A stretch of 64,000 nucleotides of DNA from a virus (lineage: Duplodnaviria; Caudoviricetes), in the IMG/VR virus record IMGVR_UViG_3300050821_001373, positions 1,472 to 65,471 of that record; one strand, 5' to 3'. This document shows, one piece after another, positions 236 through 57,478 of the stretch. The translations under genes were made by a program, and so were the position numbers. The notes below the pieces were generated by a model. The model was given only the letters and a program-made list of their open reading frames with translations. It was not told the origin of the DNA and made no database searches. The stretch's first letter is position 1, and each line of letters starts with the position of its first letter.

Positions 236-2257
236 TTACCGCCTTCCCATCTCTGCAACACGGATGCGCAAGTTCCCAAGTCTCCAGAAGGACCCTAGGT
301 CGGACGAGGTGATTGTGAGCGAAATCTGCCGCCCTCGCAGCCTTAGATTAATGTATTCGATGGCGCTTGTCATGTTGAATGGCCCGTAAGTCGTTGGAGA
401 TCCATTCGGATAGTCCACCGCGTTAATCGTTATCTGCACCGAGGCGGTCTGCGACCCGTTGAACAGGCCCCATTTCATGTCCGGCCAGAGCCAGTCTACG
501 AACGGGATTTTCTGCCCCTCGCTAAGCACGAAATACCCGGTCGTGAAGGTCGAAACCATCGGCTGCCCATCGGCGTCCGGCGAGGTCTCATGCTGGTAGA
601 CCAGCCCGGTCGGAGTGGTGCCGATCGAGGATCCGAGGATGGATTGGTCGATCCACGCCGAGCGCGGAAGTAGCCCGTAATCCCACTCCCCGCTCAGCAC
701 GTTGAGCTTGACATAGCTGTCGTTCTCACCAGTGCTTGCCAGAGAGGGGTAGAACCACGAAACCTCATCATATTCGGAGTTTGCTGCGGCGACGATCCTG
801 TTCTGAAATGCGGTGTTGAGGTTTTGAAACACCACATCCCAGACCGAGCACGGGATTTGCTGGACGCCATTGCCGGACAGCACGAAGAACTGCCCGAGGC
901 TCATCCAGAACACGTTGCCCTGCTGTGCCGTGAACGCGTGCGGACCGATCAGGCCACAGCCGGACGAAAGCTTGTTGAAGCCGAACACGAACGGCGGCCC
1001 GAGATACTGCATCGCGTAGATGTCGAGATCAGTCCAGAGCAATGCCTGCTGTGGGCCTTGCGTGCCACCCACAATCAACGATCCAGTGGGGATACGGAAC
1101 GAACCAGCCTGTGTCTGGTCTGTCACAGTCCAGTTGGTGAAGTCCTGACTGTCAGACCATCGGACCGTCAGCGGGTCTTGCTGTTGCCCGGTCGAGGTCG
1201 AGCCGTAGGCCACCAGGATTTGCTCCGGCATCGCAACGAAGATGCCGTTGTTGAATGCCGGCCCGGTCGAGATGAGCTGTGCGGTCTGCTGGCCGGAGTT
1301 GGGCTGCCAGTAATATATCGCGCCGCCGATCGGGTTGGCGAGCAGGTCCTGCCCCCAGTTGTCCAACTCCCAGTCGTCCGCCGTGATCGCGGTTCCGGTC
1401 TGAGAAGCCGGCACAACGCCCGTTCCGTAGCCGCCAAGTCCGTAACCACCCAGCCCATAGCCTACGCCAACGGCCGCAGGACCGAGCGAAATGTAATAGA
1501 CGAGTTGAGCCTGGCCGCCGTTCATCGCAACCGAGGTCCCGCTCGAGGCCGCCACATCGCCAGAGATATTGAACGTGTTCGCGCTCGGAACGGTGCTGAT
1601 CGAATAAATTCCATCGATCGTGATGCCGCCGACCGTCGTCGGAATTGGAAACTGAAAGGGGTCTCCCGGCGATTGACCGTGGTTGTTCAGCGTAACCAGA
1701 ACCGTCGAACTGCCTGCCGATGTGGTGAACGACGGCACAGCACCGCCGCTCACTACCGCTGATGTCGCACTGGATGTTGCCGTGATCTGGTAGCTGTTCA
1801 CGCCAGTCACTTGGACGATCGGGTACAGGCCCTGCAACAGCAACCCACCGACCGAGATCGGAGTGTTGAAAAACACCGCGTCAAACGTCGTGACGTTGCT
1901 GATGTTCGGGTCTACGATCGTAACCGTCGGGCTTCCATTCGTCGTCGAGAAGTTCGGCGAGAAATTCGAAGTCAGGGTCTGCGGCGTGATGTCCTGAAGA
2001 TTTCCGTTCGTGATGACGTTGAGCTGAGAGGTGGTTCCGATCGCGAGGTGACTGATAGCATTCAGGTCCGCCCAGCTATGCAGGCACCGCGGAATGCCGG
2101 ACAGCGCGAACGGATAGAACCGGCTCCAGCCTCCCAGCTTCTGCGGCAGCTTGTCCTTCCAGCGGATCAGATTGCATGACGAAATCCCCGACTGGTTCAG
2201 TGTCGGGGTGATCTCGGCCTGTACGCCGGGGACTAGCTTGAGCGATACCTCTGGCAT
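236..2257 (-). CDS. tail tubular/nozzle (stabilization, P22 gp10/T7 gp12-like) protein
   Basis: 673 aa, beta-rich with W/D propeller-like repeats (VRWSDSQDFTNW, GCGLIGPHA, C-terminal WRLGNLRI); position after adaptor and collar genes. Confidence 0.7.
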   Translation of the reverse strand: MPEVSLKLVPGVQAEITPTLNQSGISSCNLIRWKDKLPQKLGGWSRFYPFALSGIPRCLHSWADLNAISHLAIGTTSQLNVITNGNLQDITPQTLTSNFSPNFSTTNGSPTVTIVDPNISNVTTFDAVFFNTPISVGGLLLQGLYPIVQVTGVNSYQITATSSATSAVVSGGAVPSFTTSAGSSTVLVTLNNHGQSPGDPFQFPIPTTVGGITIDGIYSISTVPSANTFNISGDVAASSGTSVAMNGGQAQLVYYISLGPAAVGVGYGLGGYGLGGYGTGVVPASQTGTAITADDWELDNWGQDLLANPIGGAIYYWQPNSGQQTAQLISTGPAFNNGIFVAMPEQILVAYGSTSTGQQQDPLTVRWSDSQDFTNWTVTDQTQAGSFRIPTGSLIVGGTQGPQQALLWTDLDIYAMQYLGPPFVFGFNKLSSGCGLIGPHAFTAQQGNVFWMSLGQFFVLSGNGVQQIPCSVWDVVFQNLNTAFQNRIVAAANSEYDEVSWFYPSLASTGENDSYVKLNVLSGEWDYGLLPRSAWIDQSILGSSIGTTPTGLVYQHETSPDADGQPMVSTFTTGYFVLSEGQKIPFVDWLWPDMKWGLFNGSQTASVQITINAVDYPNGSPTTYGPFNMTSAIEYINLRLRGRQISLTITSSDLGSFWRLGNLRIRVAEMGRR

Positions 2258-3246
2258 CAGGACGCCTTGATCACCGCAATGCCGGTCACCTGCGAGGGCT
2301 GGACGTTCGGGTGTGACCCACCCCCGCCTTGCGATGCATTGTTGATGCTGACTCCAGTCACATTGTTCTGTGTCACGGACGTTCCGCTAGCGGCTAGACC
2401 GTTGCCGCCACCGCCAGATACACCGACAGTCTGCGTTGCAGCGGTTGGTGATATGACGTGCGCGTGTCCTGGGTCGTTAAGCGAGTTAGGATGCGAGTGA
2501 GAAGGTATCTGCGAAGTTGCCAACGTGACGCCCTGATTGTCTGCCGCAGCCCCAATCGTCTGTCCGTTGAGACCGCCGATCCCTGCCGTGATGCGCGTTC
2601 CCGTGCCATCATAGGGCAGCGCCACTCGACCTCGGTGATCAGGGACCGCGAACGTGGTGCTGCCGTTGCCGCCAAACGAACTGCCGAGCCGCGCGCCGAG
2701 ATACGGATAGTCCGAGAAATTATAAACCGTGCCGTCGCACAGCAAGAACGGCGGCTTCGTGCACAACAATACCCACGCTGGCATGGCCGATAGACCAGCC
2801 CACATCTCGATATGCCCAACGCGGCCCATGTTCACAAACCGGACGTTGGTGCCGTCGCTGTAGATGTGCTGCACGTCGCCCCGGTCGATGCATATCACCT
2901 CTCCAGAGCCCGCCGCGCGGAGGATGAGCACTTGACCGCTAGCCGTCGTCAGGTTCTCGACGATGTAGTATCCCGGAAGTGGGAGCGTGACCTGCACGTT
3001 TGTCGTCAATGTTCCGGTGAAACGGAGTACCGCGTTCTGCGCTTGGGTCGGGCCTCCGGATGGAGTCGGCGTGCCAGCGGGTGCAGTGAGCGTGATGTTG
3101 GAAGATGCCACCCCAATGCTCTGAACTCCACCGAGATAGCCGTCCATGGAATTGAAATCGCCGTTTACCGGGATATTCCACGTGCCAACGTTCGAGCCGA
3201 GCAGGGGCAGCGATAGCAAGATGTTCGTTGAGGTCGGGTCAGCCAT
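2257..3246 (-). CDS. tail fibre protein with phage tail-collar domain
   Basis: Collar motif FLLCDGTVYNFSDYPYLGARLGSSFGGNGSTTFAVPDHRGR and C-terminal HSH/HPNVQP. Confidence 0.8.
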   Translation of the reverse strand: MADPTSTNILLSLPLLGSNVGTWNIPVNGDFNSMDGYLGGVQSIGVASSNITLTAPAGTPTPSGGPTQAQNAVLRFTGTLTTNVQVTLPLPGYYIVENLTTASGQVLILRAAGSGEVICIDRGDVQHIYSDGTNVRFVNMGRVGHIEMWAGLSAMPAWVLLCTKPPFLLCDGTVYNFSDYPYLGARLGSSFGGNGSTTFAVPDHRGRVALPYDGTGTRITAGIGGLNGQTIGAAADNQGVTLATSQIPSHSHPNSLNDPGHAHVISPTAATQTVGVSGGGGNGLAASGTSVTQNNVTGVSINNASQGGGGSHPNVQPSQVTGIAVIKAS

Positions 3247-3252
3247 GTTTTA

Positions 3253-3966
3253 CTACCTGCTCGGTGTTGCTGCCGGGGTCGGCGACAGTGAGGCCCAAGC
3301 CCCGGCCGCGTAGCGCTTTCTGAACTCCTCCATAGAGATAGCAGATTTCAGCGCCTGATACTGCGATTCCCACGAAAGCGCCTGCTGTGGATTGTCGGAT
3401 TGCGCGCCCCAGTTCTGCTGATATCCAGACATGAAGATCATCGTCGCCGCGAACCAAAGCTGCGGCACAAACAGCGTCAGATAGGTCTGCGGGTTGAGCG
3501 CGCTCAACGGCGTTGGCCTTATGGTGCCGATCACCTCAAGCGTATACGCCCCGTCAGGCCATGCCGGGCCGACCACGATCGTCTGATCCGTAATCATGGC
3601 GAAGTTGGCCGGCGCGCCGGTGTAGCTCGGCGAGCCTCCCACCGCGTCGAGGAAGTCTCGCGAGATCGGCAAAAGCTGCATCCGCGTCCCGACGTCGGGA
3701 TTTGTGGTCCCGGCCGGAGTGATCAGGTTGATCCCGTTCGTCACCACAAACGTACCGTTGTTCTGCGGGAGCGTGAAGTTACGGTTTCCGATCGAGAGCG
3801 CAGCCGAGTCCCGCGTCACCGTCGCCAGCAGGTCGAGCTCGCTGTAGATCCGCTGCTCGGCATAGTCGATGCACGACGGCAGAATGCCAACGAAGTTCGG
3901 GTCCGTCGATTGGACCACGATCTCGTTGGCTAGGGCTTGGACCCATGAGGTGTAAGTGTAGCTCAC
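3253..3966 (-). CDS. head-tail adaptor-like virion protein
   Basis: 237 aa, IDYAEQRIYSELDL and VGPAWPDGAYTLE motifs typical of podovirus adaptor proteins; synteny. Confidence 0.6.
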   Translation of the reverse strand: MSYTYTSWVQALANEIVVQSTDPNFVGILPSCIDYAEQRIYSELDLLATVTRDSAALSIGNRNFTLPQNNGTFVVTNGINLITPAGTTNPDVGTRMQLLPISRDFLDAVGGSPSYTGAPANFAMITDQTIVVGPAWPDGAYTLEVIGTIRPTPLSALNPQTYLTLFVPQLWFAATMIFMSGYQQNWGAQSDNPQQALSWESQYQALKSAISMEEFRKRYAAGAWASLSPTPAATPSR

Positions 3967-4160
3967 CTCATATCACCACGGCAATCAGCGTGGATGGTGC
4001 GAGAAATGCGCAATCCCTGCTGGTTCGTGTCCATCTTTTCTGTGATCTTTTGCTGCCGCGCGGTCTCACACGCTTGCATCGTTGCATACTCGTGTTTTTC
4101 GGTGGTCGGTCCCACGTCCTGCTGGAGCCAGACAAACGTTAGGATGAAAAATGGTGTCAT
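3963..4160 (-). CDS. small hypothetical protein (hydrophobic N-terminus, 2 Cys)
   Basis: GGAGG RBS upstream; stop overlaps next start. Confidence 0.6.
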   Translation of the reverse strand: MTPFFILTFVWLQQDVGPTTEKHEYATMQACETARQQKITEKMDTNQQGLRISRTIHADCRGDMR

Positions 4161-4172
4161 TTAGTCCTCCGG

Positions 4173-7037
4173 TTAGCATAACGTAGTACAAACGATGCCA
4201 AAGTTTGAGTTCTGGACTACGCCGGGACCAGCAGGGGTAGTCCCGCCCGGGATAGTCGTTCCGCTGGTTAGAAGTCTTGCCCCACCAGTGGGCGTAGATG
4301 CCGCCGGTGTGTTTATTGGAGCCCCGGTATAAGACGCATTAGTGAGAATGTATCCACCATTCCTGATCGCGTAGGCCACGCCAAGTGTGACATTAGCCGA
4401 AAATGCAATGTTACCTGATATCTGGATCCCGTTGCACATCGAACTGCAGAAGAGGATGGTTTGTGCAGTCATTGCAGCACCTGTGCCCACCACCAAAGTG
4501 GTCAGCCCAAACGTAGCTCTTCCGTTCGCATCTGCAAAGAACAAGCAGTCGTTATTACCCTGCGGGTTCCACTGAGCAGACCCGAAGAAGTCATAGATAA
4601 CGACTTGGTGTCCGTAGAATTGACAAGTGGCGGCCGTATTTGCGCTGTTGCACGCTAGCACTGGAGCGAAACCAAGATTCCAGTTGTGAATGACGATGCT
4701 ACCATCACCGGCGTTCCAGCACGTTCCTGCGTTGGACCAAGTGATGGACCCGCGGTAATTGACCGTCAGGTAACATCCGACGCTGGATCCAGTTTGAGCT
4801 ATGGACTCAGAGATCGTATTTGTGCCGCCAGCATAAATCCCAATCGCGCAAGCATTGTAGCCACCGCCATCCCACTGGGTGCCAATCAGATTAACCGCCG
4901 TCTGGACGTTCTTCAGACAGTCTGCCGCAGCACTGCCGAAGCCTCCGTTGCTATCACTTCCATCCTGCCGAACGCAAAGCTCGGGAGAGTTTCCCCTGCC
5001 TGGAATGAGCCAACGGATCTGATCGCTGAGCTGCCAGACGTTGTTCTGCGAATAAACACTGCGGCTCGCGCCCGGCCACATGTAAATCTCAGGAGCGATC
5101 TGCCAGTCAGTGAACGTTCCAGACCCTCCAACCGTGTCAACAGTCAGGGTAAACGTCGTGCCCGAATAGGTCGCAAGACCTGCCATCCAATTCGCAGTGT
5201 TGGCGAGCGAATAGACCCGATAGCGCTGGGCGGTGTCGATCGTCAGGCCGGCTGCCGTGGTGAACGCCTTCGAGCCCGTACCTATCGTAAAGCTGGTGGT
5301 GCTGGACGCGAACTGAGGCAAGAGCATTTTGGTCTTGCCGAGATCATCGTTCTTCACCCGGAAAGCGCAGCCGGACGTATAGCCAGACGGTGCGTTGAAC
5401 GTAACAGCGTAAAAGGCCGCCCCGCTTAGAGCCAATGTCTGCTGGCAATCAGATGAGGTGCTCGTATAGGCAGCAGTCTTGGCGAGACGTGCGTTAGTCA
5501 GGACGCCAGCCACCGCCGCAACCGTACATGTTCCGCTGCTGGAGATGTTGCAGGTGCCGGAGGTGGTGATACCAGAGCCGGGCGAAATGGTGACATTGGT
5601 CACTGACCCGGCAGAGTTCCAAGCCGGCGTAGATGCGCCCATGGTCAGCACTTGGCCGTTGGTGCCCGCCGCCAGTGCCTGCCAGCCCGTGCCGCCGGCC
5701 GCGCGGTACAGGATCGAGCCCGTGCCGGAGCCAATCACGTCAAGAACCGAACTCGGAGTGTTCGCGCTCGGTGCCGCAGAGCCGCCGGAGACGTTCGCGA
5801 GCACATTGCCGGTAGCGATCGATGCGAGGCTGACCGTTCCTGTCGTGGTGATCGGGCCGCCAGTCAGGCCAGCGCCGGTCGCGACGTTGGTCACGGTACC
5901 GGTACCGGCAACCGTAACCCATGACGGGTTCGCCGCCGCGCCGTTGGTCTGCAGCACCTGCCCAGACGTGCCGGGAGTGAGCGGGACCCAGGTCGAGGCA
6001 TTGCGGTAGAGAATGCTGCCCTGCGTCGTCCCGAGCATATCGAAGACATTGGACGCGGACAACGCGGACGGAATTGCTGTGCCGCCGGAGTTATTGCCCA
6101 GCACCGAGTTATTGGAGATTGAGGGCAATTGCGCCAGCATGACATTGCCGGCGATATCGGCGAATGTCGGCTGGCTTGCGGTGAACGCGCCAGCGGTAGA
6201 AAGCGAGCGCAACCATTGGCTTGCCGTGGCATTGATCGCGTTGACGCAGCCCAATGCAGCCAATTGGCTCGCCGGGCATTGCGTCGGAGCAATTGAGCCG
6301 CTAATGTCCGCAAATGACGGTTGCGACAATTGGGGGATGCCGCTCGTGGAGATATTGCGGACCCAATTGCTCGCAACGGCGGTATTGGCCTGCACACCAC
6401 CCAATGTCGAGGTTGATGGATTGGGAAGATCAGCCCCCACCAGTGCCCGGAACGTCGGAGCCGACGCAGCGCCTGTGGTCGGTCCGGACCACAACGTGTT
6501 CGCGGCCTGCGTCGCCAGCGATCCGGTCAATGTGCCGTTGGACGTAACCGGGCTTCCCGTCACGTTGAAGATGCCCGGCAGCGCGAGGCCGACCGAAGTC
6601 ACCGTGCCAGTGCCGGACAGCGTCACCCAAGACAGGTGCCCTGATCCGTCCGTGGTCAGAACCTGGTTGTTCGCGCCGTTCGTTCCCGGAAGCTGGAACA
6701 GAACCGATCCGGCTGCTGATGGCACAGTGATCGCCGCAGCGCCCGAGGTAGCGCCGTTCAGCGTGAGAGAGCCGCCCGTTCCGCCGTTGAGGCCCAGCGT
6801 CGGCGCCACGGTCGCCACCCAGCCCGAAACGCCACGGTTGAGGATCGTGCCTTGACCCGAGCCGAACCCGCGATCAAGCAAAGTGGACTGCGAGTAGAAC
6901 CCCGGCAATCCGGTCGTTGCCTGCCCGTTGCCGCACACGAACCCGGTCGTGGGCTGGCCCGAGCATCCGCTCTGCGCCTGCGCCGAGGACGCCGCCATGA
7001 TCAGAGCAGCACCGAGCCAGAGAGCTTTCATTTTCAT
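4173..7037 (-). CDS. tail-fibre-like protein with N-terminal Sec signal peptide
   Basis: 954 aa Gly/Thr/Ser-rich with fibre repeats (GSILYR...GQVL...PSW); N-term MKMKALWLGAALIMAASSAQA|Q; 20 Cys. Confidence 0.8.
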   Translation of the reverse strand: MKMKALWLGAALIMAASSAQAQSGCSGQPTTGFVCGNGQATTGLPGFYSQSTLLDRGFGSGQGTILNRGVSGWVATVAPTLGLNGGTGGSLTLNGATSGAAAITVPSAAGSVLFQLPGTNGANNQVLTTDGSGHLSWVTLSGTGTVTSVGLALPGIFNVTGSPVTSNGTLTGSLATQAANTLWSGPTTGAASAPTFRALVGADLPNPSTSTLGGVQANTAVASNWVRNISTSGIPQLSQPSFADISGSIAPTQCPASQLAALGCVNAINATASQWLRSLSTAGAFTASQPTFADIAGNVMLAQLPSISNNSVLGNNSGGTAIPSALSASNVFDMLGTTQGSILYRNASTWVPLTPGTSGQVLQTNGAAANPSWVTVAGTGTVTNVATGAGLTGGPITTTGTVSLASIATGNVLANVSGGSAAPSANTPSSVLDVIGSGTGSILYRAAGGTGWQALAAGTNGQVLTMGASTPAWNSAGSVTNVTISPGSGITTSGTCNISSSGTCTVAAVAGVLTNARLAKTAAYTSTSSDCQQTLALSGAAFYAVTFNAPSGYTSGCAFRVKNDDLGKTKMLLPQFASSTTSFTIGTGSKAFTTAAGLTIDTAQRYRVYSLANTANWMAGLATYSGTTFTLTVDTVGGSGTFTDWQIAPEIYMWPGASRSVYSQNNVWQLSDQIRWLIPGRGNSPELCVRQDGSDSNGGFGSAAADCLKNVQTAVNLIGTQWDGGGYNACAIGIYAGGTNTISESIAQTGSSVGCYLTVNYRGSITWSNAGTCWNAGDGSIVIHNWNLGFAPVLACNSANTAATCQFYGHQVVIYDFFGSAQWNPQGNNDCLFFADANGRATFGLTTLVVGTGAAMTAQTILFCSSMCNGIQISGNIAFSANVTLGVAYAIRNGGYILTNASYTGAPINTPAASTPTGGARLLTSGTTIPGGTTPAGPGVVQNSNFGIVCTTLC

Positions 7038-7040: not shown

Positions 7041-7499
7041 CTAACCCGCATCGCTGAGATAGAAGCCGCCACCCAGCGGGTACGGCGTGATCTGGACCCA
7101 AGCATAGTTCGTGGTGAGCACAAGCTGCGAGAGCCCGTCCACCAGTTCGCCACTCGTGAAGGTGATCGTGATGTTGTTCGTCCCGGCGTCGCCTTTGATG
7201 TCCTTGATCAGGATTGGCACGCCGCCGTAGCTAGATGCCAGATTCAACTTGATGCCGGTCGGGGCGCCGACGGCCTTGTTGACCAGCACCTTGCCGATTC
7301 CAGCGGGGACCAGATACGGCGAGCCAACCGTAGCGCCGGTCGTGATGATGACCGAGGCCCCTGTGCCGGCCGGGTTGATGAAGCTGGCGATCACGGACAG
7401 CGGCACCCGCTTGGTCGTGCCGCCCTGCACAATGACGAACTCGTCATCACCGGTCAGGCCGAGCGCGAGAGGCAAGCTGCTGATCGGTATGTTACTCAT
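7041..7499 (-). CDS. virion-associated hypothetical protein
   Basis: N-term IPISSLP...VIVQGGTTKRV fibre-anchor-like motif; IKDIKGDAGTNNITI gp34-like repeat. Confidence 0.65.
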   Translation of the reverse strand: MSNIPISSLPLALGLTGDDEFVIVQGGTTKRVPLSVIASFINPAGTGASVIITTGATVGSPYLVPAGIGKVLVNKAVGAPTGIKLNLASSYGGVPILIKDIKGDAGTNNITITFTSGELVDGLSQLVLTTNYAWVQITPYPLGGGFYLSDAG

Positions 7500-7921
7500 C
7501 AGGTCGAGCTCGCCGTGTCCGGGAAATATATCGTTGGTTCATTGGGATCGGGCAGCATCTCTACCCCAATTTCCCAGATGATGTTATCGCCGCCCTCCGT
7601 CGTTATGTCCGAGCCAGAGAACGTGCCGGATTCCGTAGCGACGAAACTCGGCACAGTCTCTGCATAGTTCTCCGGCCGCGGGTTGGCGATCGGGACCGGA
7701 TCAGGCGGGATGACGATGGTGCGAAGCTGGGGTTGCTCGACGTCGAGGCATGTACGGCACACAAGCAGGCGCAGGTTCTGCAGCTTCACGCCGGCCCACT
7801 GCGACTGCCAGGTCAAGTCGGAATGATTGTAAGTAAAATTGCACCGGTCACAGATGGCGAGCGCACGCGGCGACCGCATCGAGACGCGGCCTCTACCCGT
7901 TGGATGCCAAGGTCCGGTCAT
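7499..7921 (-). CDS. conserved phage protein with CxxC...CxxC zinc finger
   Basis: CDRC...CRTC, QPQL, DPVPIANPRP; coupled to neighbours. Confidence 0.7.
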   Translation of the reverse strand: MTGPWHPTGRGRVSMRSPRALAICDRCNFTYNHSDLTWQSQWAGVKLQNLRLLVCRTCLDVEQPQLRTIVIPPDPVPIANPRPENYAETVPSFVATESGTFSGSDITTEGGDNIIWEIGVEMLPDPNEPTIYFPDTASST

Positions 7922-8607
7922 TGGCGGAAATAGCTCCCGAGCTGCGGCGCAATGGTCATCCCTACGTCCTCAGTGTCCTCGGTTGCGGCCAGATTCCATG
8001 CCTCTTGCGCATCGGCCTTGCGCGATGCTTCAAGCTCGTTCTTCCAGATGCGGGCAAGACGATAGGCCAGTTCGGCGACCATGCAATCCAGCCAGCGGAA
8101 CGGCACTTCCGGAGTTTGGCCGCCCTGCAGGTTGGAGTCCTGGATCTGACGCGTTCGGTAATAGTTCAGTGTGTACTGGCTGGTTTGATCCGGCACCAAC
8201 CACAGCGTGATGTTCGGATTGATCAGCTTGTCATACCAGAACACACTCGGTGTGCCCTGCGCTCCTGGATTGGAATACGAGGCATATTCCGTGCGGCTGA
8301 TCGGGAAGATAAGCCGGTTGCTGAGCGGAGACCCGTTGAACGACAGATAAGCGTCGAGCACGTTCAGCGTCGACGGGTCTACACTGTACGTCGCCACGCC
8401 CGCGATAAGCGGGACACTGACCAGTTCAACAGTCCAGAGATTCACCGGGAGATTACTGAACTTGGAGAGCATGAGATTGCTCTCCGTCGCAGCGTCTTGC
8501 ATGTGCTCGGCCAACAGCGCGGAACGACGAATGCCGATGCGAGAGTATGCCGAAACGGCAAGGCTCGCGTTCGACAGAGAGAAGTTCGTCGTTCCGCTAG
8601 TTGCCAC
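7918..8607 (-). CDS. head-tail connector / tail tubular protein A-like
   Basis: MATSGTTNF start, NLWTVE, ISRTEY, EVPFRWLDC motifs of podovirus adaptor family. Confidence 0.7.
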   Translation of the reverse strand: MATSGTTNFSLSNASLAVSAYSRIGIRRSALLAEHMQDAATESNLMLSKFSNLPVNLWTVELVSVPLIAGVATYSVDPSTLNVLDAYLSFNGSPLSNRLIFPISRTEYASYSNPGAQGTPSVFWYDKLINPNITLWLVPDQTSQYTLNYYRTRQIQDSNLQGGQTPEVPFRWLDCMVAELAYRLARIWKNELEASRKADAQEAWNLAATEDTEDVGMTIAPQLGSYFRQ

Positions 8608-9138: not shown

Positions 9139-10086
9139 TTAGCTGGTCCTGTTGTATTTGGCCGGATCGTTCTTCATCTCGACGCCCATCCGGACCTTCT
9201 GCCGGGCGTATTCGATCTCGCTGATTCCCATGTTCTTGCACATCTCCCGCTCGTCCGGGGTCAGCGTAACACGGTTGCTCGGCGAACTGCCGTCAACGCT
9301 GCGCTCCGATCGGGACGGTGGGGCCTGCATCGAGATATTCCCTTCATCGCCGTTGGACTGCTTCAGCCCCGTGGCGCGTTCGATATGGTCGAAATACTCC
9401 GGGCTGCCACGAACGACGCCCTTCTGGACCGCCCCTTGATACGCGAAATCGATCTTGCGGGCAAAGTCCGGGTCCTTGAACGACGCCTCGTTCCGCAGCA
9501 TCCATTCCCGCTCAGACGACATGAGGGCCTGATTGGAACGAACGCTTTCCGCCCAGCTCTGCTGCCGCGGCTGCTCACGCGGCTCCGGCTTGGCTTCCCG
9601 CCGCTCGGCCACCTCAGCCGCGCCGGACTCAAACGCCAGAATCTTGGCTTCCGCCCGGCTGATCCGGCTCTGCGCATCGGCGATCGCTTTCCAGTCGCCC
9701 ATCTCGCCGGCCTGCTGGAGCGATTGCTTTGCCGCGTCCCGCTCGCCTTGCGCTGCCGAGAGGCCGCCCGTGATGATGTCACCCTCAAGCGCCGCACTGC
9801 GCTGTCTGGCCTCCTGTGCCTCGCGTGCCGCCAGCGACGCAATCCGACGCGTCTCAGTCACCTCAATCTCGGCTCGTTCCGCACGTTCACGGTCTGCGCG
9901 TTGAGCGGCCTGCAGCGCCTCAAGCTGCTCCTGGAGCGACTTGGCGTCCGGATCTGAGGGAGCGGTCTTCTTCTCTCCCGGCTTCTCGGTCTCGATCGAA
10001 ACTCCGTCCGGGAGCTCGATCATGATCTCCTGATCCAACGGAATGCCGGCGATTTCCTCGTCCGTCTTGAATGCTCTACTGGCCAT
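9139..10086 (-). CDS. putative capsid scaffolding protein
   Basis: Acidic coiled-coil; C-term VTLTPDEREMCKNMGISEIEYARQK typical of scaffold; start placed at ATG 10086. Confidence 0.65.
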   Translation of the reverse strand: MASRAFKTDEEIAGIPLDQEIMIELPDGVSIETEKPGEKKTAPSDPDAKSLQEQLEALQAAQRADRERAERAEIEVTETRRIASLAAREAQEARQRSAALEGDIITGGLSAAQGERDAAKQSLQQAGEMGDWKAIADAQSRISRAEAKILAFESGAAEVAERREAKPEPREQPRQQSWAESVRSNQALMSSEREWMLRNEASFKDPDFARKIDFAYQGAVQKGVVRGSPEYFDHIERATGLKQSNGDEGNISMQAPPSRSERSVDGSSPSNRVTLTPDEREMCKNMGISEIEYARQKVRMGVEMKNDPAKYNRTS

Positions 10087-10498
10087 CGTGGGTAACAACC
10101 TCCGGAGATTCGACGATCATGTCGATCAGCGCGTCCTCGATATATCGGCAGTCTACGCCATTGATCTGGACGCGCCGGGCATCGCCGGGACGGAACGCAA
10201 CCCAATCGCCGACGTTGGCGTCTTGTCCGTAGAAATAGATATTGACGCGCGGGTCATCCTCGAAGGCGGCCGGCCCCTTCTTCAGGACAAGACCGACTGA
10301 CCCCTGCCAAATATCTTCCTTCAGGGAGCCTGTCGTCCGAATGATGCCGCCCTTCGTCTTCTCGGGCGCAACATAGATGGCGACCAGCAGCCGGTTCGCC
10401 ATGAGGCTGACTCCGCTTAGATCGCCAACTTTGGCCATCAAGGCCTTCTTGGGATCAGCGGCATTTGCAAGTTCTTCCAATACGGCGACGCGCGCCAT
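10076..10498 (-). CDS. groES: co-chaperonin GroES-like protein
   Basis: NRLLV...EKTKGGII...GLVLKKGP...VGDWV mobile-loop pattern of Cpn10. Confidence 0.8.
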   Translation of the reverse strand: MARVAVLEELANAADPKKALMAKVGDLSGVSLMANRLLVAIYVAPEKTKGGIIRTTGSLKEDIWQGSVGLVLKKGPAAFEDDPRVNIYFYGQDANVGDWVAFRPGDARRVQINGVDCRYIEDALIDMIVESPEVVTHDGQ

Positions 10499-13668: not shown

Positions 13669-14034
13669 TTACTGCATTGCCTCCGCCGGGTTGTTCCGCT
13701 TCCGCGGTCCGCGAGGCTTGCCGGCCGGCCACCCACCGCGGCGCTTGGGTTGGGCTTCAGCCCCCGGTGCTGCGGCATCACTGCTTGGCAGACGCTCACC
13801 GGAATTGTGAGACGCGGCAAAGCCGAGGGCTGAACTCTGAATTTCATTGCGCACCGGATTCCCCGCCCGGTACCAAGCCGCAGCCATCAGCCTCGCCTCG
13901 TCCAGATACGCCACCAGCCGCTGGAAATCCTCAGCCGTCAGCATCTCCCGCTCGGACATGAACTGCGCCGTGACGTTGATGTTGTCCGCAAACAGCATCC
14001 GCCAGCGTCGGGGGTCGATCGATAGGCCAGTCAC
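13669..14034 (-). CDS. hypothetical protein (C-terminal RGGWPAGKPRGPRK AT-hook-like)
   Basis: Coupled ORF between GT and portal. Confidence 0.55.
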   Translation of the reverse strand: MTGLSIDPRRWRMLFADNINVTAQFMSEREMLTAEDFQRLVAYLDEARLMAAAWYRAGNPVRNEIQSSALGFAASHNSGERLPSSDAAAPGAEAQPKRRGGWPAGKPRGPRKRNNPAEAMQ

Positions 14035-14867
14035 TGTCTAAGCATCTCCTCTGCCGCTCGTTTCAGCCTATCATACCCCGGATCGTCTGCATACTCGGCA
14101 CCATAGTCCCGCTCGAATTGCGCACCATGCTCCACAAGCAAGCTATTGCGCTGCCGTAATGCCCCGCCCGTGCCATGCAACTCGCTGATCAATTGCGATC
14201 GTAGCCATTCCGGATAATCCAGGGAACACAGCATGTCCAGCGCTTTCGCCAGCCGCTGTGGTCGCGTCGCGTCAAAGAACCGAGCCCACCACGAAACCTC
14301 TCGCATTCGCGTCGTCTTGTGGCCGCCGACCTCGCTCGCTCCGTGCTTCTCCCATTTCACGTCAGCCCAGACAAACCGGCCGGTCATCCGCGCCAGCTCG
14401 TCAATCCATGTGTCGTGCCACCAAAACGGGAAATGCTCCGGGCAGAAATACCCGACTTTCTCGATCCACCCCCGTGTCACCGCGATGCCGTCCGGGAGAC
14501 AGAACGGGCCACGTCGCTCGCCCCAGTAGATTACGCCAACGCCGTCCTTGAACTGAGCCGCCGCATCGAGCAGCCGGCGATCCCAGCCTGGTGAGACAAG
14601 CGCTGCGTCATCAACACCGAGCACGAAGACGGTTGTGTCTAGCGTGGTGGTGCGCACTGCACGGTTGTATTTGGCCCCGAGCGAATCCTCGCGGGGCGCG
14701 GCCTCGCTAGGCGCGGCGATACCAGCGTAGCCAGAAAGATCGTCGTCATCGTCAAGCGCGAGAGAGAACCATGTGTACGGATCCACTGCCGACGCTTGCG
14801 CCTTCGCGATCGTCGCCCTCAATTCCTCCGGCCGCCCTCGGCTCGCTATGCAGACTGCGACTGTCAT
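14031..14867 (-). CDS. glycosyltransferase (GT-A fold, GT2-like)
   Basis: IASRGRP, LDDDD, GVDD, GWD, WWHDTW motifs. Confidence 0.7.
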   Translation of the reverse strand: MTVAVCIASRGRPEELRATIAKAQASAVDPYTWFSLALDDDDDLSGYAGIAAPSEAAPREDSLGAKYNRAVRTTTLDTTVFVLGVDDAALVSPGWDRRLLDAAAQFKDGVGVIYWGERRGPFCLPDGIAVTRGWIEKVGYFCPEHFPFWWHDTWIDELARMTGRFVWADVKWEKHGASEVGGHKTTRMREVSWWARFFDATRPQRLAKALDMLCSLDYPEWLRSQLISELHGTGGALRQRNSLLVEHGAQFERDYGAEYADDPGYDRLKRAAEEMLRQ

Positions 14868-44972: not shown

Positions 44973-47033
44973 TTAAGGATGCGTCGGCTCCGCCGGTTGC
45001 GTCGTGATGTAGGCCGAGAATGCATTCTGCGTCGTCGAGATCTGCATGTTGGTCTGACGCAGTATGGTGGTGCCGGGATTGGACCACGGGAAACCCTGAT
45101 ATAGCCCCGCCTTCAGATAGGCCCCGGTGTCGTTGTCCCAGAGAGCAGAGGGGCCTTTCGAGCAGATCAACGGCAGCGTCGAGCCGCGTGGCCCTGCGTT
45201 GATGGTGATCGTGTCGGTGGTGTGGTTCGTCGACCAGAACCCCTCGATTTCCACCGCATAGGTCGTGCCGACCGTCAGGGTAAACGGAGAGCCGCAATTG
45301 GTCGTGACCGGATTGCCCCCGCTCTCGCAACATTGCGTCTGGAACTGAATCTGCCCATTCAGGCACGAGAACGTGACAAGGTCGGGCGTGCCCGGACTGC
45401 CGGCGCCGTCGTTGTAGTGGACCTGGCCGCCGTAGCACCAGTCTCCGTTATGTGTCTGATATTGCTCGAAATTGAACGTGTAATAGATCGAAAAATGCTG
45501 GCCGGGCGTAAACACCAGAGCATTATCGATCTCGGACCGCTCCTGGATCGTGATATTTGCGTCGCTGTCGCCGGGCTGGACGATGAATCGCCACATCGTG
45601 GCGGTGTTATTGATGTTGGTCGCGCGCGCTATCGAGGGCCAGACATAGCCGCCTGATTGCGGGTGCCACGACTGCCCGAGCACGTCCGGGCCATAAGTGT
45701 TCTGGCCATAGGCATTGTTCGGCCCAGTGTAGGCATTCGGCACGTAGCTGCCAGCCATCGTGAAGCCGTCCGACGTGTTCGGTGCGAACGGGAACGTGTT
45801 GCCACCCTGACCCTGCAGGAAGGTCGCCATCGCCACGCGGCTGGCCTGCGTCGACGGATAGAGCACCATCGTCTCAAAGCACGAATTGCTGGCGCTCTCC
45901 GAGCCCGAGGCGTTCGCGAACAGCGTCATGCCCACGTTGGTCGAATAGGTGATGTTGCCACCGGTCGCGATGGTACCCAGGCTCACCGCGTCATAGTTCA
46001 ACTGGGTGGTCGAGGTGTCGTAATCCCAGACAGCCATCTGGCTGCGCATGCCGTTGTCAATCCGGAACTGTCCGAAGACCGGGGACCCGTTGCGCGCCGC
46101 GTTGAAATCGCTGGCCTGGTTCGAGCTCGCCGATGCCGCGCCGACGCCCCAATAGGCCACGCTGTCGAACTGCGCGCCGGCCGGGCCGTTCATGATCCAG
46201 ACGCCGCCGCCGACCGAATTGGTGATGGTTAGGGTGTCGCCGGTCTGCGTGCCGGTCGGCCCGATATTGCCGGGCGCGAACGCCATCGTGCCCGTGGTGC
46301 CGGTCGGCAGCGTGTTCAGGTAGGACTGACCGGTGCCCGAGGTGGCCGAGGCGTGCGGGATGAAACCAGCACTGTCATAGATGCCGGGGCTGGTGCCGAG
46401 TTGCGTCTGGTTGTTCGCCGTCGAGAGACCGACCTGCGAGGCCATGGAGGCGATATTGGCCGAACCGTTCGTGATGTTGCCGGTCGTGACCCATGTCGGC
46501 AGGTTCGCCTGGCTCCATTTATAATCCAGCGTGTGCAGGTTCGCGACCATGAACAGGTGCTGCTGCGCGGTGTTGACGGTCGAGCTAAACGTCGTCGTCA
46601 TCTTCGAACCCGGCTGCGGACAAACCGCGAGCAGGGAGTTCTCGTCGACAATCACCCGCGCCTTATGCCCAGCCGTAGAGGCATCCGATGCGTTGATGCC
46701 GTTGACCTGATCGACCCAGGTGTTCAGGTAGCAATAGGTGCTGGCACAGAACGTGTTGAAGCTGGCGACGTCGACCTTGCCGTTCGAGAGGAAGCCGATC
46801 GCCTGCGTCGCGCTGTCGCTCTGCCGCTGGACCGTCCCCCAACTGCCGGCATAACTGGAATTGAGCTTGTAGGCCGAAACGCCCCACGTCGCCCCGGTGT
46901 AGGTGTTGAGCAGCCCGGAGAATGACCCACCACCCCCGCCTCCGCCGTTTACCGCAGCCTGAAAGAACGCGGCATTGACCGGCAAAGCAGCGATGATCGC
47001 TGTCAGGAGGCCGGCGAAAAGGATACGCTTCAT
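44973..47033 (-). CDS. signal-peptide protein with ConA/LamG-like domain and C-terminal polysaccharide-lyase-like domain
   Basis: MKRILFAGLLTAIIAALPVNA|; SAYKLNSSYAG...QRQSDSATQAIGF; ERSEI...GQVH...YLKAGLY; 10 Cys. Confidence 0.75.
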   Translation of the reverse strand: MKRILFAGLLTAIIAALPVNAAFFQAAVNGGGGGGGSFSGLLNTYTGATWGVSAYKLNSSYAGSWGTVQRQSDSATQAIGFLSNGKVDVASFNTFCASTYCYLNTWVDQVNGINASDASTAGHKARVIVDENSLLAVCPQPGSKMTTTFSSTVNTAQQHLFMVANLHTLDYKWSQANLPTWVTTGNITNGSANIASMASQVGLSTANNQTQLGTSPGIYDSAGFIPHASATSGTGQSYLNTLPTGTTGTMAFAPGNIGPTGTQTGDTLTITNSVGGGVWIMNGPAGAQFDSVAYWGVGAASASSNQASDFNAARNGSPVFGQFRIDNGMRSQMAVWDYDTSTTQLNYDAVSLGTIATGGNITYSTNVGMTLFANASGSESASNSCFETMVLYPSTQASRVAMATFLQGQGGNTFPFAPNTSDGFTMAGSYVPNAYTGPNNAYGQNTYGPDVLGQSWHPQSGGYVWPSIARATNINNTATMWRFIVQPGDSDANITIQERSEIDNALVFTPGQHFSIYYTFNFEQYQTHNGDWCYGGQVHYNDGAGSPGTPDLVTFSCLNGQIQFQTQCCESGGNPVTTNCGSPFTLTVGTTYAVEIEGFWSTNHTTDTITINAGPRGSTLPLICSKGPSALWDNDTGAYLKAGLYQGFPWSNPGTTILRQTNMQISTTQNAFSAYITTQPAEPTHP

Positions 47034-48145
47034 GGGAACACCGTCGGATTTACCGTATGAACGAATGCGTAGATTCGGTTGAACACGCGAAGCTGGCCAG
47101 CAGAGCCCAACGAACCGCCGACAGCCACGGCGAACACCGGTTCAAGGTATGTCGATCCGGAGCCAGCGCACTGCCAGCCTTGAGCCGTGGTGTTGTTCGG
47201 CGCTGAGGGAGTTCCGGTGGCCGAGCCATTGGTTGCACCGTTATAATAATTGGTAAGGGTGGTGCCACTGAGATCACCCGCAAATAGGCCGGAAGCCGTG
47301 CCGGCGGTGCCGGTAGCGAAGCCAACGCCGTTAATCGCACCGCCCATGCCGCCGCCGAACGAAAACACCTGCATGTTGATATCAAACGAAGGCGCCGCCT
47401 CGCCGATCGGGCAGTTGTTATCGGCCGTTGCACCACCCAGCGTGCCGGCCATCAGCATGGCGCTCGACGTCTTGTAATTGGTCGCCGTCGAGTAATTCAG
47501 GCCGGTGTTGAGCGTGGCGTTACCGGTGGGGGTATAGCTCGTGTTGGTCGTGAACGTCGCGGTGCCGGTGATCGTGGCGCTGGTGGCCGTGATGATGTCC
47601 TTGAGCGCCGCGGCCGTGCTGTCGGTGGCGTGGATATACAGCCGGTCCAGCTTGGCGAAGTCGCCATCAGTGACCATACCGCAGATCATCGTCTGATAGG
47701 CAGTGGTGTAGGCCGTGGTAATACCAGACAGGAACGCGGCAGACTCCGTACAACCGCTGCCACTCGCCGCGATCGTCAGCGTGAACGCCGATCCGCAGTT
47801 AGCCACTGTGGTTGTACTGTCAGTGACCTTGACTTGAATGCTGGGGAACGTTCCGGAGACGGATGGGGTGCCTGAAATGATGCCGGTCGAGGAGCTGATT
47901 GAAAGCCCGGTCGGTAGCGACCCGGTCTCCGAGAACGTGTAAGCTGGCGTTCCGCCCGAGGCGCTGGGCGTCGCGCCGGTGTAGAGAGTGCCCTGCGTTC
48001 CCGAGGTGACTGGCGTATAGGAACAGGACAGCGCTCCGCTTGAGATCTTGGTCGGGTTGCTCCAGCCATCAAGAGAGCCGTTCCAGCCAGCGTGCGCACC
48101 GATGCAGGTGAACGATAGCAGGCCAGCGATTAGCAGTTTTTTCAT
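47030..48145 (-). CDS. signal-peptide protein with He_PIG (putative Ig) domain
   Basis: MKKLLIAGLLSFTCIGAHA|; ASGGTPAYTFS..GSLPTGLSISSSTGIISGTP; 6 mature Cys. Confidence 0.75.
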   Translation of the reverse strand: MKKLLIAGLLSFTCIGAHAGWNGSLDGWSNPTKISSGALSCSYTPVTSGTQGTLYTGATPSASGGTPAYTFSETGSLPTGLSISSSTGIISGTPSVSGTFPSIQVKVTDSTTTVANCGSAFTLTIAASGSGCTESAAFLSGITTAYTTAYQTMICGMVTDGDFAKLDRLYIHATDSTAAALKDIITATSATITGTATFTTNTSYTPTGNATLNTGLNYSTATNYKTSSAMLMAGTLGGATADNNCPIGEAAPSFDINMQVFSFGGGMGGAINGVGFATGTAGTASGLFAGDLSGTTLTNYYNGATNGSATGTPSAPNNTTAQGWQCAGSGSTYLEPVFAVAVGGSLGSAGQLRVFNRIYAFVHTVNPTVFP

Positions 48146-48729: not shown

Positions 48730-48755
48730 GATAACCCCCGTTGTTCAGGGTGCTA

Positions 48756-55908: not shown

Positions 55909-56202
55909 TCACTTCCGGGATGCGTGCGACGCGAACACGCTTTGGATCGCAACAACGAGGGCTTCAACTCTGCTGATCGACTTGTCGATCGCCACCACTG
56001 CATTCGTGACGTTGGCAAGGCCGCCGACCGATTCGCGTGTAAGGTCGACGATGGTTTTGTACTGAGCCTCAATTATTCGGTCCTTTTCCTTGCCATCCTG
56101 ACGTTGGAAAAACCACATCAGCAAGGCAAGAGCGGCTATACCTAGCGGGCTGCCCGTCAAGATAACATTGACGAGCTTATCGATCGGGAACCCATCCACC
56201 AT
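55909..56202 (-). CDS. single-TM coiled-coil protein (holin or inner-membrane spanin candidate)
   Basis: TM LGIAALALLMWFF followed by coiled coil. Confidence 0.55.
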   Translation of the reverse strand: MVDGFPIDKLVNVILTGSPLGIAALALLMWFFQRQDGKEKDRIIEAQYKTIVDLTRESVGGLANVTNAVVAIDKSISRVEALVVAIQSVFASHASRK

Positions 56203-56242
56203 CGTCTATTGTTCCCGTCAAGTCCACTGCTTCACATTTGGA

Positions 56243-56938: not shown

Positions 56939-56949
56939 GAACTTGCTCC

Positions 56950-57309: not shown

Positions 57310-57478
57310 TGACTTTGTTCCTATCGGTGAGCTTTGGATACCCGGATTATAGTCGATTTGATCATACCGGCGACGATGAGCACACACGCAACAGCAAGAG
57401 CCAACACCGACGTCCAGAACATGCAGATGAGAAGGGCCATGCAGGCTAGACAGGCGCCTGCCGCTATGCCGACGCCGA

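Follow-up and report, generated by a model that had tools for sequence, protein, structure and literature searches.

A tail fibre gene with a predicted export leader and paired cysteines, and its putative adaptor, in a podovirus-like phage

Gene order of the tail module and architecture of the fibre

We have analyzed a stretch of 64,000 nucleotides (the window) from a podovirus-like genome of 65,471 bp, in which terminase, portal and capsid genes are all present together with g954, a gene located in the tail module. The phage is uncultured and of soil-metagenome origin. The stretch was present in one soil-metagenome DNA run, which may be its source, and a second run contained a 0.05 share of it; no RNA run appeared among the listed sequencing-run matches. 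The features discussed here are the following:

7918 to 8607, minus strand: adaptor paralogue A, PF24175 SU10_adaptor (E 1.6e-08; synteny in L002 and L005)
7041 to 7499, minus strand: g152, 152-aa ORF, predicted leaderless Cys-free adaptor
4173 to 7037, minus strand: g954, ORF of 954 aa with 20 Cys, leader-bearing tail fibre / receptor-binding protein
6975 to 7037, minus strand: predicted Sec/SPase I signal peptide of g954, residues 1-21 (MKMK / ALWLGAALIMAA / SSAQA), from a sequence rule and the homologue alignment
6897 to 6974, minus strand: mature N-terminus of g954, residues 22-47, with the C25-x9-C35 loop and GLPGF; predicted docking element, from C25/C35 invariance and the complex model
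5526 to 6896, minus strand: shaft of diverged repeats, residues 48-504, with Cys pairs 254/264 and 496/504, from segment alignments
5007 to 5525, minus strand: intermediate beta domains, residues 505-677 (AF2 pLDDT >90)
4176 to 5006, minus strand: predicted right-handed parallel beta-helix, residues 678-954, with 6 Cys pairs (tailspike / polysaccharide-lyase fold), from the AF2 model and VIA-align
3963 to 4160, minus strand: g65, 65-aa ORF, two-Cys small protein, candidate assembly factor
3253 to 3966, minus strand: adaptor paralogue B, PF24175 SU10_adaptor (E 3.9e-13; synteny in L002, L004 and L005)
44973 to 50696, minus strand: second locus with four leader-bearing fibre-like ORFs (686, 371, 195 and 646 aa), 3' of the capsid genes

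The first-pass annotation had placed g954 between two adaptor genes, and the two flanking PF24175 paralogues agree with this. It had also described the neighbouring tail proteins as leaderless, which holds for the collar fibre, the nozzle-like protein and g152 (3, 4 and 0 Cys respectively). The ATG of g954 is found 3 nt past the TAG stop of the g152 ORF. Lysis genes are represented elsewhere in the genome by an endolysin (phrog_181, E 1e-48) and a lipoprotein-type ORF (56531-56938). Neither g954 nor g152 nor g65 matched Pfam (E 0.01) or PHROGs, and only three records of cultured phages matched g954, each over 14% of the query or less. Among 8000 scored candidates we identified 617 homologues of g954. 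A scan of viral contigs with the single g954 protein retrieved only L001; a wide alignment of the C-domain (A3) was too diverse for this kind of scan, and a narrower one (A4) retrieved 8 loci.

The fibre repeats noticed before were confirmed at the protein level, residues 300-395 against 396-490 giving z=14, residues 200-253 against 254-305 z=18 and residues 22-150 against 300-395 z=7.2 (200 shuffles in each case). They were not detected by BLASTP self-comparison or by Tandem Repeats Finder on the DNA. The intermediate region includes a widespread module of about 72 aa (about residues 576-648) that is present in up to 10 repeats in other proteins (phmmer, query-C 72-144). For the C-domain the AF2 model (pLDDT 92.9, pTM 0.91) was compared by VIA-align, and more than 40 beta-helix entries were found above Z 12. 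Closest to residues 678-953 were the receptor-binding domain of the Pam1 tailspike (7eea_A; Z 16.6, rmsd 3.6, 219 aligned), the Staphylococcus phage Andhra protein (8egr; Z 16.3) and PL6/pectate lyases (Z about 15), while Foldseek gave no match for this domain at E 0.001 or better, the best being 2.2e-3. Unlike the known tailspike and depolymerase beta-helices, the version in g954 has six disulfide-type Cys pairs and belongs to no Pfam family at E 0.01.

Most of the best 120 homologues match only about residues 1-500 of g954, and its C-domain was found behind three other N-terminal modules. C-termini are thus exchanged between homologues, as in receptor-binding proteins, and g954 combines the characters expected for a tail fibre i.e., location in the tail module, a conserved proximal part and an exchangeable distal domain. 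What it does not have is an N-terminal particle-binding domain of its own: the leader is found there instead, and the anchor peptide of its fused relatives is located on g152.

The small gene g65 had been proposed as a partner or chaperone of the fibre, a suggestion that is consistent with its distribution. In the four loci with downstream DNA (the window, L001, L156 and L157) a g65 homologue comes directly after a C-domain of the g954 type, and in these loci the C-domain is preceded by N-terminal modules of three kinds. All four sequences keep C31 and C60. Small, directly 3' of the fibre gene and co-varying with the distal domain, g65 has the position of a fibre chaperone and may act as one.

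Leader and cysteine pairs among homologues

The N-terminus of g954 reads MKMKALWLGAALIMAASSAQA|QSGC, with K2 and K4, an h-region of 12 residues and A19-Q-A21 ahead of Q22. Leaders were called with our own hydropathy and charge rule, not with SignalP, and a Sec/SPase I leader was taken to have a positive n-region, an h-region of 7-15 residues and small uncharged residues at -3 and -1. The sequence of g954 shows this pattern, and so do 46 of 46 aligned homologues. No other 12-residue window of the protein is as hydrophobic as its h-region (KD 2.12); a transmembrane helix was not found, every 19-residue window being at or below KD 1.4. At the cleavage site the columns are conserved (-3: A in 45/46 and S in 1/46; -1: A in 38, S in 5 and G in 3; +1: Q in 43/46), while the sequence of the h-region drifts. 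By the same rule, a diverged leader is present in 106 of the best 120 among the 617 homologues. Because it recurs so widely, with the site columns kept while the h-region changes, the leader is more than a chance resemblance, and judging from these alignments it is real.

The leader noticed in the first-pass annotation thus recurs across homologues as an AxA|Q site followed by a C-x9-C-G-N loop. A true start downstream of it, considered then as an objection, is not what we found: the later in-frame candidates (codons 14, 34 and 44 onwards) fall within conserved sequence and would cut into it. Tat signal peptides carry a twin-arginine motif in the n-region, and the n-region of g954, MKMK, has no RR.

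All 20 cysteines are located in the mature part and form ten consecutive pairs (25/35, 254/264, 496/504, 531/557, 688/707, 730/755, 773/796, 805/831, 864/868 and 950/954). They had been described as largely local pairs, and the spacings x9, x9, x7, x3 and x3 are indeed there. C25 and C35 are invariant in the 46 aligned homologues, where the pair 254/264 is complete in 33, represented by one Cys in none and missing in 13. The C-domain alignment gave a similar picture for its 25 leader-bearing rows (both, one or neither Cys: 24/0/1 for 688/707, 25/0/0 for 773/796 and 23/0/2 for 864/868), and none of the 8 leaderless rows had both Cys of any pair. Among the best 120 homologues, the leader-bearing ones contain a median of 9 Cys (range 4-25), and the leaderless ones of the anchor type (n=9) between 0 and 2. 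In these sequences the Cys pairs track the leader, with only three phylogenetically independent leader/anchor contrasts on supported branches, all three with Cys loss (p 0.25).

We have examined as well the other leader-bearing ORFs of the genome. g954 had been counted as the fifth of an exported set, at a separate locus, and the other four leader-bearing fibre-like ORFs are those found together at the second locus, with 10, 6, 4 and 8 mature Cys; the one of 371 aa contains a He_PIG Ig domain. All five have even mature Cys counts, amounting to 1.3-2.4% of residues, versus 0-0.9% in the large leaderless virion proteins (portal, nozzle-like protein, collar fibre, MCP, ejection proteins and terminase). 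This composition is in line with the earlier proposal that export may be a design feature of the whole genome. Within the genome the HMM of g152 matched only g152 itself, i.e., it found no second adaptor for the other four.

The putative adaptor and the leaderless fused relatives

The product of g152 consists of an anchor peptide (residues 1-43, 7371-7499) and an XD1-like C-domain (residues 46-152, 7044-7364). We found 33 homologues, and a search for longer proteins gave two only, one of them with the XD1-like domain at its C-terminus. In the AF2 model (pLDDT 85.1), residues 40-152 superimposed on residues 74-178 (XD1) of CBA120 TSP4-N (7rej_A) with Z 12.8 and rmsd 2.5 over 101 aligned residues, the next unrelated entries being below Z 6. 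Residues 1-43 correspond to the N-terminus of leaderless fused fibres. In five of five loci (the window, L001, L002, L003 and L157) a leaderless ORF with the C-domain of g152 is located directly upstream of a leader-bearing receptor-binding protein.

The fused fibres are nine of the best 120 homologues of g954 (P0097 among them), all of them leaderless and opening with the N-terminus of the g152 type. In the case of P0097, at locus L005, a single leaderless fibre of 815 aa with 2 Cys fills exactly the slot of g152 plus g954, between flanking genes that are 66-72% identical to those of the g954 genome. Its shaft is 46% identical to that of g954 and its N-terminus 47% identical to g152; it matches the g152 HMM at positions 1-41 only. 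Like g152/g954, these fibres combine an adaptor-flanked slot, the anchor peptide and a related shaft, but they are one polypeptide with no leader, no XD1 domain and 0-2 Cys. A quick tree built on the shaft shows three or more exchanges between leader and anchor heads, and this suggests a common job for the shaft in the two forms. We regard g954 as a probable virion fibre because the leaderless fibre of L005 fills the slot, the C-termini are swapped and the beta-helix is of the tailspike type.

We have modelled the complex of three g152 and three fibre chains. The ipSAE was 0.90 (0.90, 0.88 and 0.90 in the three runs), versus 0.00 for the best of three controls; the mark used was attained by 116 of 157 solved complexes and by 2 of 215 mismatched pairs, counts that apply only roughly here (own alignments, six chains). 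The runs shared at least 92% of contacts, with partner pLDDT of 90 or higher. On the fibre side the modelled interface comprises residues 22-29, 42-44 and 46-47, the first of these segments coming directly after the predicted cleavage site, and on the g152 side residues 100, 103, 112, 121, 123, 126-135, 148 and 151-152. Conservation at the interface was not higher than in its surroundings, either in g152 (0.62 vs. 0.64, permutation p 0.65) or in the fibre (0.64 vs. 0.72, permutation p 0.85). The first-pass annotation had suggested that the 152-aa protein could be the docking adaptor on the virion side, to be tried by predicting the trimer together with it. The fused-fibre N-terminus, the XD1 fold and a complex model that passes its controls all point that way, and g152 seems to be the adaptor that carries g954.

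A possible assembly route in two compartments

Tailed-phage particles are taught as cytoplasmic self-assemblies. In the openly accessible literature that we searched, we came across no account of a tailed phage exporting its tail fibre by Sec, nor a documented case in these phages in which a protein from the periplasm is added to a particle made in the cytoplasm. Our reading of the locus is that the fibre is probably exported, folded with disulfides and attached to the particle at lysis. The order of events that we infer (export, cleavage, disulfides, docking, timing at lysis and presence of g954 in the virion, with docking taken from the model only) would be as follows. Leaderless and Cys-free, g152 would stay in the cytoplasm and bind the tail by its N-terminal anchor peptide, leaving the XD1-like domain exposed. 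g954, translated from the next and closely coupled ORF, would be exported by Sec and cut by SPase I after A21; oxidation of its ten local Cys pairs would follow in the periplasm, where the protein would presumably trimerise, possibly helped by g65. Once the envelope is opened by holin, endolysin and spanins, the periplasmic fibres would mix with the particles, and the g152 trimer would receive the new N-terminus (Q22-P29 and the GLPGF turn) at its distal face. The distal beta-helix would then bind, and perhaps cut, the surface polysaccharide of the next host.

It is also conceivable, although we consider it unlikely, that g954 is exported and never joins the particle, acting instead as an enzyme or binder that is free in the periplasm or released, with g152 as a separate short fibre stub. 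Its use could lie, for example, in cleaving or covering the polysaccharide that serves as receptor on the infected cell, which would keep the progeny from sticking to debris and prevent superinfection. Leader and Cys pairs by themselves indicate only exit from the cytoplasm, but the same shaft is found in the same slot of the sibling phage as a leaderless fused fibre, and the exchange of heads on the shaft tree suggests one job for both forms. Similarly, polysaccharide lyases have the beta-helix fold too, the periplasmic depolymerase VexL among them (6fi2, Z 14.5 by VIA-align), and the four other leader-bearing proteins are without an obvious adaptor by the g152 HMM; yet the coupling of an XD1-domain gene to a leader-bearing gene in all five loci and the behaviour of the complex model against controls argue for a particle-bound fibre.

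Much less probable is an uncleaved leader that would hold g954 at the inner membrane, either by serving as a signal anchor or by making it a lipoprotein via C25; g954 would then be a membrane-bound protein of the infected cell. A Cys is indeed found within four residues past the leader (QSG-C), but C25 is always paired with C35. The h-region of a lipoprotein leader ends in a lipobox, [LVI][ASTVI][GAS]C, and here the query reads Q-S-G-C and homologues A-Q-C, Q-G-C or Q-N-C, so that the spacing from Q22 to C25 varies, Q often precedes the Cys and no lipobox is conserved, which speaks against processing by signal peptidase II. As a membrane anchor the h-region, of only 12 residues, is short (no 19-residue window exceeds KD 1.4), the small residues at -3 and -1 are kept in all 46 aligned homologues, and the modelled interface uses a free end at residue 22. 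Least probable of all is a leader that is never used, the fibre being made and assembled in the cytoplasm and any disulfides formed by air oxidation after release; virion proteins are known to have disulfides without being exported, and for a Cys-cross-linked siphovirus tail tube spontaneous oxidation is one of the routes given by the authors (PMC13576161), and the ribosome-binding site ahead of the g954 ATG is weak, but the charge, hydrophobicity and AxA|Q site persist in 106 of the best 120 homologues despite sequence drift, later starts lie inside conserved sequence and the leaderless relatives are without Cys pairs.

More tentatively, at somewhat short of even chances, many tailed phages of soil diderm bacteria might build their particles in two compartments, with head, tail and adaptor made in the cytoplasm and recognition proteins exported by Sec, stapled by disulfides in the periplasm and clipped on at lysis; they would dock by the new N-terminus left by signal peptidase, so that leader cleavage would be an assembly checkpoint, and the switch between a one-piece cytoplasmic form and a two-piece exported form would have occurred several times in this fibre family. 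Crossing of the inner membrane by a tail fibre would add a maturation step after lysis and would explain disulfide-hardened receptor-binding proteins in soil phages. It would tie infectivity to the Sec, signal peptidase and Dsb functions of the host, possible determinants of resistance or host range, and such fibres would misfold when expressed without export. They would also be missed by annotation pipelines that take a signal peptide to exclude a virion protein. The fused leaderless sibling at L005 is a natural control for experimental work.

Separately encoded tailspikes carried by a short anchor plus a beta domain of the gp9/gp10 type, as proposed for g152/g954, are found in the branched or adaptor-borne receptor-binding complexes CBA120 TSP1-4, G7C gp66/gp63.1 and T4 gp9/gp10. 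None of their parts has a leader, and assembly is assumed to be cytoplasmic, with docking via XD2/XD3, whereas g954 has a Sec leader and ten Cys pairs. In the description of CBA120 TSP4-N, the domains are AD-XD1-XD2-XD3, with XD1 as a spacer and XD2/XD3 as docking modules (PMC8825819). In g152, by contrast, the XD1-like domain ends the polypeptide and the modelled docking takes place on it. Use of Sec before lysis is described for exported endolysins such as Lys44 of the Oenococcus phage fOg44, which has a signal peptide, and P1 Lyz, which has a SAR domain (PMC6116005). They are late proteins using Sec, as proposed for g954, but lysis enzymes and not parts of the particle.

The MAT (mosaic adhesive trimer) fibres of Bdellovibrio bacteriovorus are trimers resembling phage fibres; they have a signal peptide, and their N-terminal part is constant while the tips can be swapped (PMC10769870). 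The shaft repeats of g954 match Bdellovibrio and Peredibacter ORFs (for example L137, 48% over residues 76-473). We considered whether g954 was one of them and rejected it: the leader is shared, but the 65-kb genome that harbours the gene is that of a phage, with terminase, portal and capsid. The genes for MAT fibres are bacterial, and the fibres stand on the surface of the bacterium itself and have an N-domain of about 130 aa, whereas g954 is in a phage tail module next to an adaptor of the virion type. A scan of genome contigs gave mostly distant shaft repeats, in Acidobacteriota, Bdellovibrionota and others. The only named host clue is P0004, from Bradyrhizobium oligotrophicum, with 69% identity over 58% of g954, which makes this bacterium a candidate only.

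The tail module and the leader of g954

We have analyzed the tail module of a genome recovered as one single contig of 65,471 bp, of which the window covers bases 1472-65471. Its genes include a large terminase (phrog_38, E 1.4e-69), a portal (phrog_1216) and a major capsid protein with matches to PF25209 and phrog_371, as well as an endolysin (57479-58117, minus strand; phrog_181, E 1e-48) and ejection-type proteins; the genome is, by its sequence, that of a podovirus-like phage. A soil metagenome run containing the stretch may be its source.

Genes of the tail module, in order along the minus strand
7918-8607, minus: adaptor paralogue A (PF24175, E 1.6e-08)
7499-7921, minus: 140-aa ORF
7041-7499, minus: g152, 152-aa ORF
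4173-7037, minus: g954, 954-aa fibre ORF
3963-4160, minus: g65, 65-aa ORF
3253-3966, minus: adaptor paralogue B (PF24175, E 3.9e-13)
2257-3246, minus: Collar-domain fibre (PF07484, E 1.5e-13)
236-2257, minus: nozzle-like protein, 673 aa (phrog_3287, E 1.5e-70)

The first-pass annotation had described g954 as a repeat-containing fibre with a signal peptide and 20 cysteines, located between two adaptor genes in the tail module, where the neighbouring collar, nozzle and 7041 ORF products have no leader. All these observations were confirmed. PF24175 paralogues lie on both sides, the protein-level repeats are significant against shuffles (z = 14, 18 and 7.2), and the neighbouring tail proteins lack a leader and also have few Cys. 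No family match in Pfam or PHROG was found for g954, g152 or g65. The start of g954 is located 3 nt past the stop of g152, and its residues 1-21 contain K2 and K4, a hydrophobic core of 12 residues and, ahead of Q22, A-Q-A. No other 12-residue window of the protein is as hydrophobic as this core (KD 2.12), and over 19 residues the value never rises above 1.4, indicating the absence of a membrane-spanning helix. The GC1/2/3 values are 0.52/0.60/0.69. On the opposite, plus strand (5479-6855), two long shadow ORFs (176 and 280 aa) have a high GC3 and misled crude GC3-based gene calling.

The 140-aa ORF has two CxxC pairs with the look of a zinc ribbon and no family match. In the related loci L002, L003 and L005 it is likewise located after adaptor A and ahead of the fibre genes (35-72% identity).

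Searched against 5.8 billion protein clusters, g954 gave 617 homologues among 8000 scored candidates, and we examined the best 120. Two were full-length matches (P0001, 93%, and P0002, 76%), while for most of the others the common part was only the first ~500 residues. One homologue, P0004, is the product of a Bradyrhizobium oligotrophicum prophage. Classified by our own hydropathy and charge rule, 106 of these best 120 were leader-bearing, nine started with the N-terminal peptide of g152 (the anchor type, leaderless), three were leaderless of other kinds and two were partial. We chose 46 of the 106 leader-bearing homologues for alignment. Position -3 was A in 45 and S in one, position -1 was A in 38, S in five and G in three, and Q followed at +1 in 43, with a hydrophobic core of freely variable sequence; no lipobox or twin-arginine motif was conserved among them. 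Cleavage-site columns that are kept over a drifting core indicate evolution as of a working signal peptide. A start downstream of the leader was ruled out because the later in-frame candidates sit within conserved sequence.

Cysteines and leaderless siblings

The 20 Cys of g954 are all located past residue 21, as ten consecutive pairs. Among the best 120 of the 617 homologues, the leader-bearing ones had a median of 9 Cys (range 4-25), the anchor type 0-2 and the other leaderless ones 3-5. C25 and C35 were found in 46/46 aligned leader-bearing homologues, and the pair 254/264 was complete in 33, absent in 13 and never halved. The C-terminal 450 residues could be analyzed separately, since an exhaustive phmmer search gave 1439 proteins at E <= 0.001. 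We aligned 41 of them, 25 leader-bearing, 8 leaderless and 8 with partial or unclear N-termini that were kept apart; these classes were read by eye from the N-termini, overriding the rule twice (P0164 as leader, P0179 as none).

Cysteine pairs of the C-terminal domain among the 25 leader-bearing rows (both/one/neither)
531/557: 21/0/4
688/707: 24/0/1
730/755: 15/1/9
773/796: 25/0/0
805/831: 4/0/21
864/868: 23/0/2
950/954: 17/5/3

Both Cys of any pair were found in none of the 8 leaderless rows. Strict gain and loss by pairs is a hallmark of disulfides. That the pairs are confined to leader-bearing forms speaks for an oxidising compartment. The first-pass annotation had also suggested that export may be a genome-wide design feature, with g954 as the fifth exported ORF, a view that the composition of the predicted proteins supports: the mature parts of the five leader-bearing ORFs in the window have even Cys counts (20, 10, 6, 4 and 8; 1.3-2.4%) versus 0-0.9% Cys in the large leaderless virion proteins of the same genome.

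A sibling was found in L005, a 67-kb viral contig with flanking genes 66-72% identical to those of the window. Exactly in the slot of g152 and g954 it has a single leaderless ORF of 815 aa, with an N-terminus that is the one of g152 (47% identical across the initial ~70 residues), followed directly by a shaft 46% identical to that of g954, and only 2 Cys. In L002 and L003 the fibre is split as in the window, and the genes have the same order. In a FastTree of the shaft columns with 118 rows, which excluded the three other leaderless rows and gave the two partial ones no score, 6 changes are needed between leader and anchor heads, at least 3 being forced by the starred branches, on what is a quick tree of a repeat-rich and probably recombining region. 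The head changes indicate that the same shaft has come under both heads more than once. The supported independent contrasts were only three, and Cys loss accompanied 3/3 (p 0.25).

The putative adaptor, the docking model and the distal region

For g152 we found 33 homologues of similar length; it has no Cys and its model reached a pLDDT of 85.1. Residues 46-152 matched residues 74-178 of CBA120 TSP4-N (Z 12.8, rmsd 2.5, 101 aligned; unrelated rows < Z 6), the T4 gp9/gp10-type domain XD1 (PMC8825819). In the TSP4 work, as far as its passages on these domains go, docking is assigned to XD2/XD3 and XD1 is a spacer, whereas in g152 we propose that the XD1-like domain docks. Here and in the relatives of g152 this domain is the end of the chain, leaving its distal face free. 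With the g152-family profile, a leaderless XD1-domain ORF appeared immediately upstream of a receptor-binding gene with a leader in 5/5 loci (window, L001, L002, L003 and L157), lying behind N-terminal modules of three different kinds. The fused fibre of L005 matched this profile at anchor positions 1-41 only.

Structure prediction with three copies of g152 and three of g954 residues 22-150 gave an ipSAE of 0.90 (runs 0.90, 0.88 and 0.90) versus 0.00 for the best of three controls. The ipSAE mark was reached by 116/157 solved complexes and 2/215 mismatched pairs, a calibration from which this job differs in having six chains and alignments of our own. Contact agreement between runs was >= 92% and partner pLDDT >= 90. 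The modelled interface involves g954 residues 22-29, 42-44 and 46-47, and g152 residues 100, 103, 112, 121, 123, 126-135, 148 and 151-152. By including residues 22-29 it would use an N-terminus that only leader cleavage creates. Compared with their surroundings, the interface residues were not more conserved (permutation p 0.65 and 0.85). Fold, gene coupling and complex model together support the earlier suggestion of g152 as a putative virion-side docking adaptor.

At the other end, the C-terminal 450 residues were modelled with 41 sequences (pLDDT 92.9, pTM 0.91). Foldseek returned only weak depolymerase and tailspike rows (best E 2.2e-3), and VIA-align placed residues 678-953 on right-handed beta-helices, with Z 16.6 (rmsd 3.6, 219 aligned) for the receptor-binding domain of the cyanophage Pam1 tailspike, Z 16.3 for Staphylococcus phage Andhra and a Z of about 15 for alginate and pectate lyases. 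A g65 homologue follows the beta-helix domain in 4/4 loci with downstream DNA (window, L001, L156 and L157), and in the four aligned sequences C31 and C60 are conserved, as is a short hydrophobic N-terminus that has no basic residues. This is the conduct of a fibre assembly factor, making g65 a candidate for the partner or chaperone role already suggested for it, a role that the linkage supports.

Residues ~576-648 (window ~5094-5312) form a beta module of ~72 aa that is shared by hundreds of long unrelated proteins, the maximum being 10 stretches, in the 5124-aa protein P0188, and may be a common fibre spacer or binding domain.

Proposed assembly and comparison with known systems

We rate g152 and g954 as an adaptor-borne tail fibre or tailspike, with a distal subunit predicted to pass through the periplasm. 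The first-pass interpretation is supported, export and incorporation being predicted. With moderate confidence we favour assembly in two compartments: g152 would be mounted on the tail in the cytoplasm, g954 would be exported, cleaved and oxidised, lysis would bring both together, and the new N-terminus of g954 would dock on the XD1-like face of g152. A likely lysis cassette (55909-58117, minus strand) contains the endolysin, a lipoprotein-type ORF (56531-56938, leader end LASLPAC) and small membrane ORFs (55909-56530), the latter two types being spanin and holin candidates.

That g954 is exported yet remains free, as an enzyme or receptor mask, appears unlikely in view of the fused leaderless sibling of L005, the coupling of the adaptor gene and the modelled complex. 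Retention of the leader as a membrane tether is very improbable given that the h-region is short and the cleavage site conserved. An unused leader is hardly credible with its conservation and the Cys contrast between leader-bearing and leaderless forms.

Endolysins are known as exported late proteins of tailed phages (review PMC6116005), phage-like fibres with a signal peptide are known on Bdellovibrio cells (PMC10769870), and disulfides in virion parts are known without export (PMC13576161). A full-text literature search, with subscription journals outside it, yielded no paper describing a tailed phage with a Sec-exported tail fibre. The window adds a matched sibling without leader that fills the same slot, the covariation of Cys pair by pair in two modules independent of each other, the finding that an XD1-type adaptor gene is coupled to a leader-bearing gene in 5/5 loci and a docking model that would use the post-cleavage N-terminus.

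Other regions of the genome deserve mention. A second locus (44973-50696, minus strand), directly downstream of the capsid genes, has four consecutive leader-bearing ORFs of 646, 195, 371 and 686 aa, rich in Ser/Thr/Gly/Ala and with 8, 4, 6 and 10 mature Cys respectively; the 371-aa one contains a He_PIG Ig domain (E 1e-08), and the genome yielded no g152-like adaptor for the four. Between the portal and a scaffold-like gene there is a GroES-like ORF (10076-10498, minus strand), which matches the co-chaperonin phrog_3188 at E 2e-06 and Cpn10 at E 0.0037, short of the Pfam cut-off. A glycosyltransferase-like ORF (14031-14867, minus strand; phrog_14945, E 1.5e-08) is located two genes upstream of the portal gene, separated from it by a 121-aa ORF (13669-14034). 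Finally, a 1021-aa ejection-type protein (60567-63632, minus strand; phrog_4287, E 4.3e-23) has at residues 279-327 a borderline match to the Peptidase_S74 chaperone (E 2.2e-04, 21.9 bits versus a cut-off of 22).
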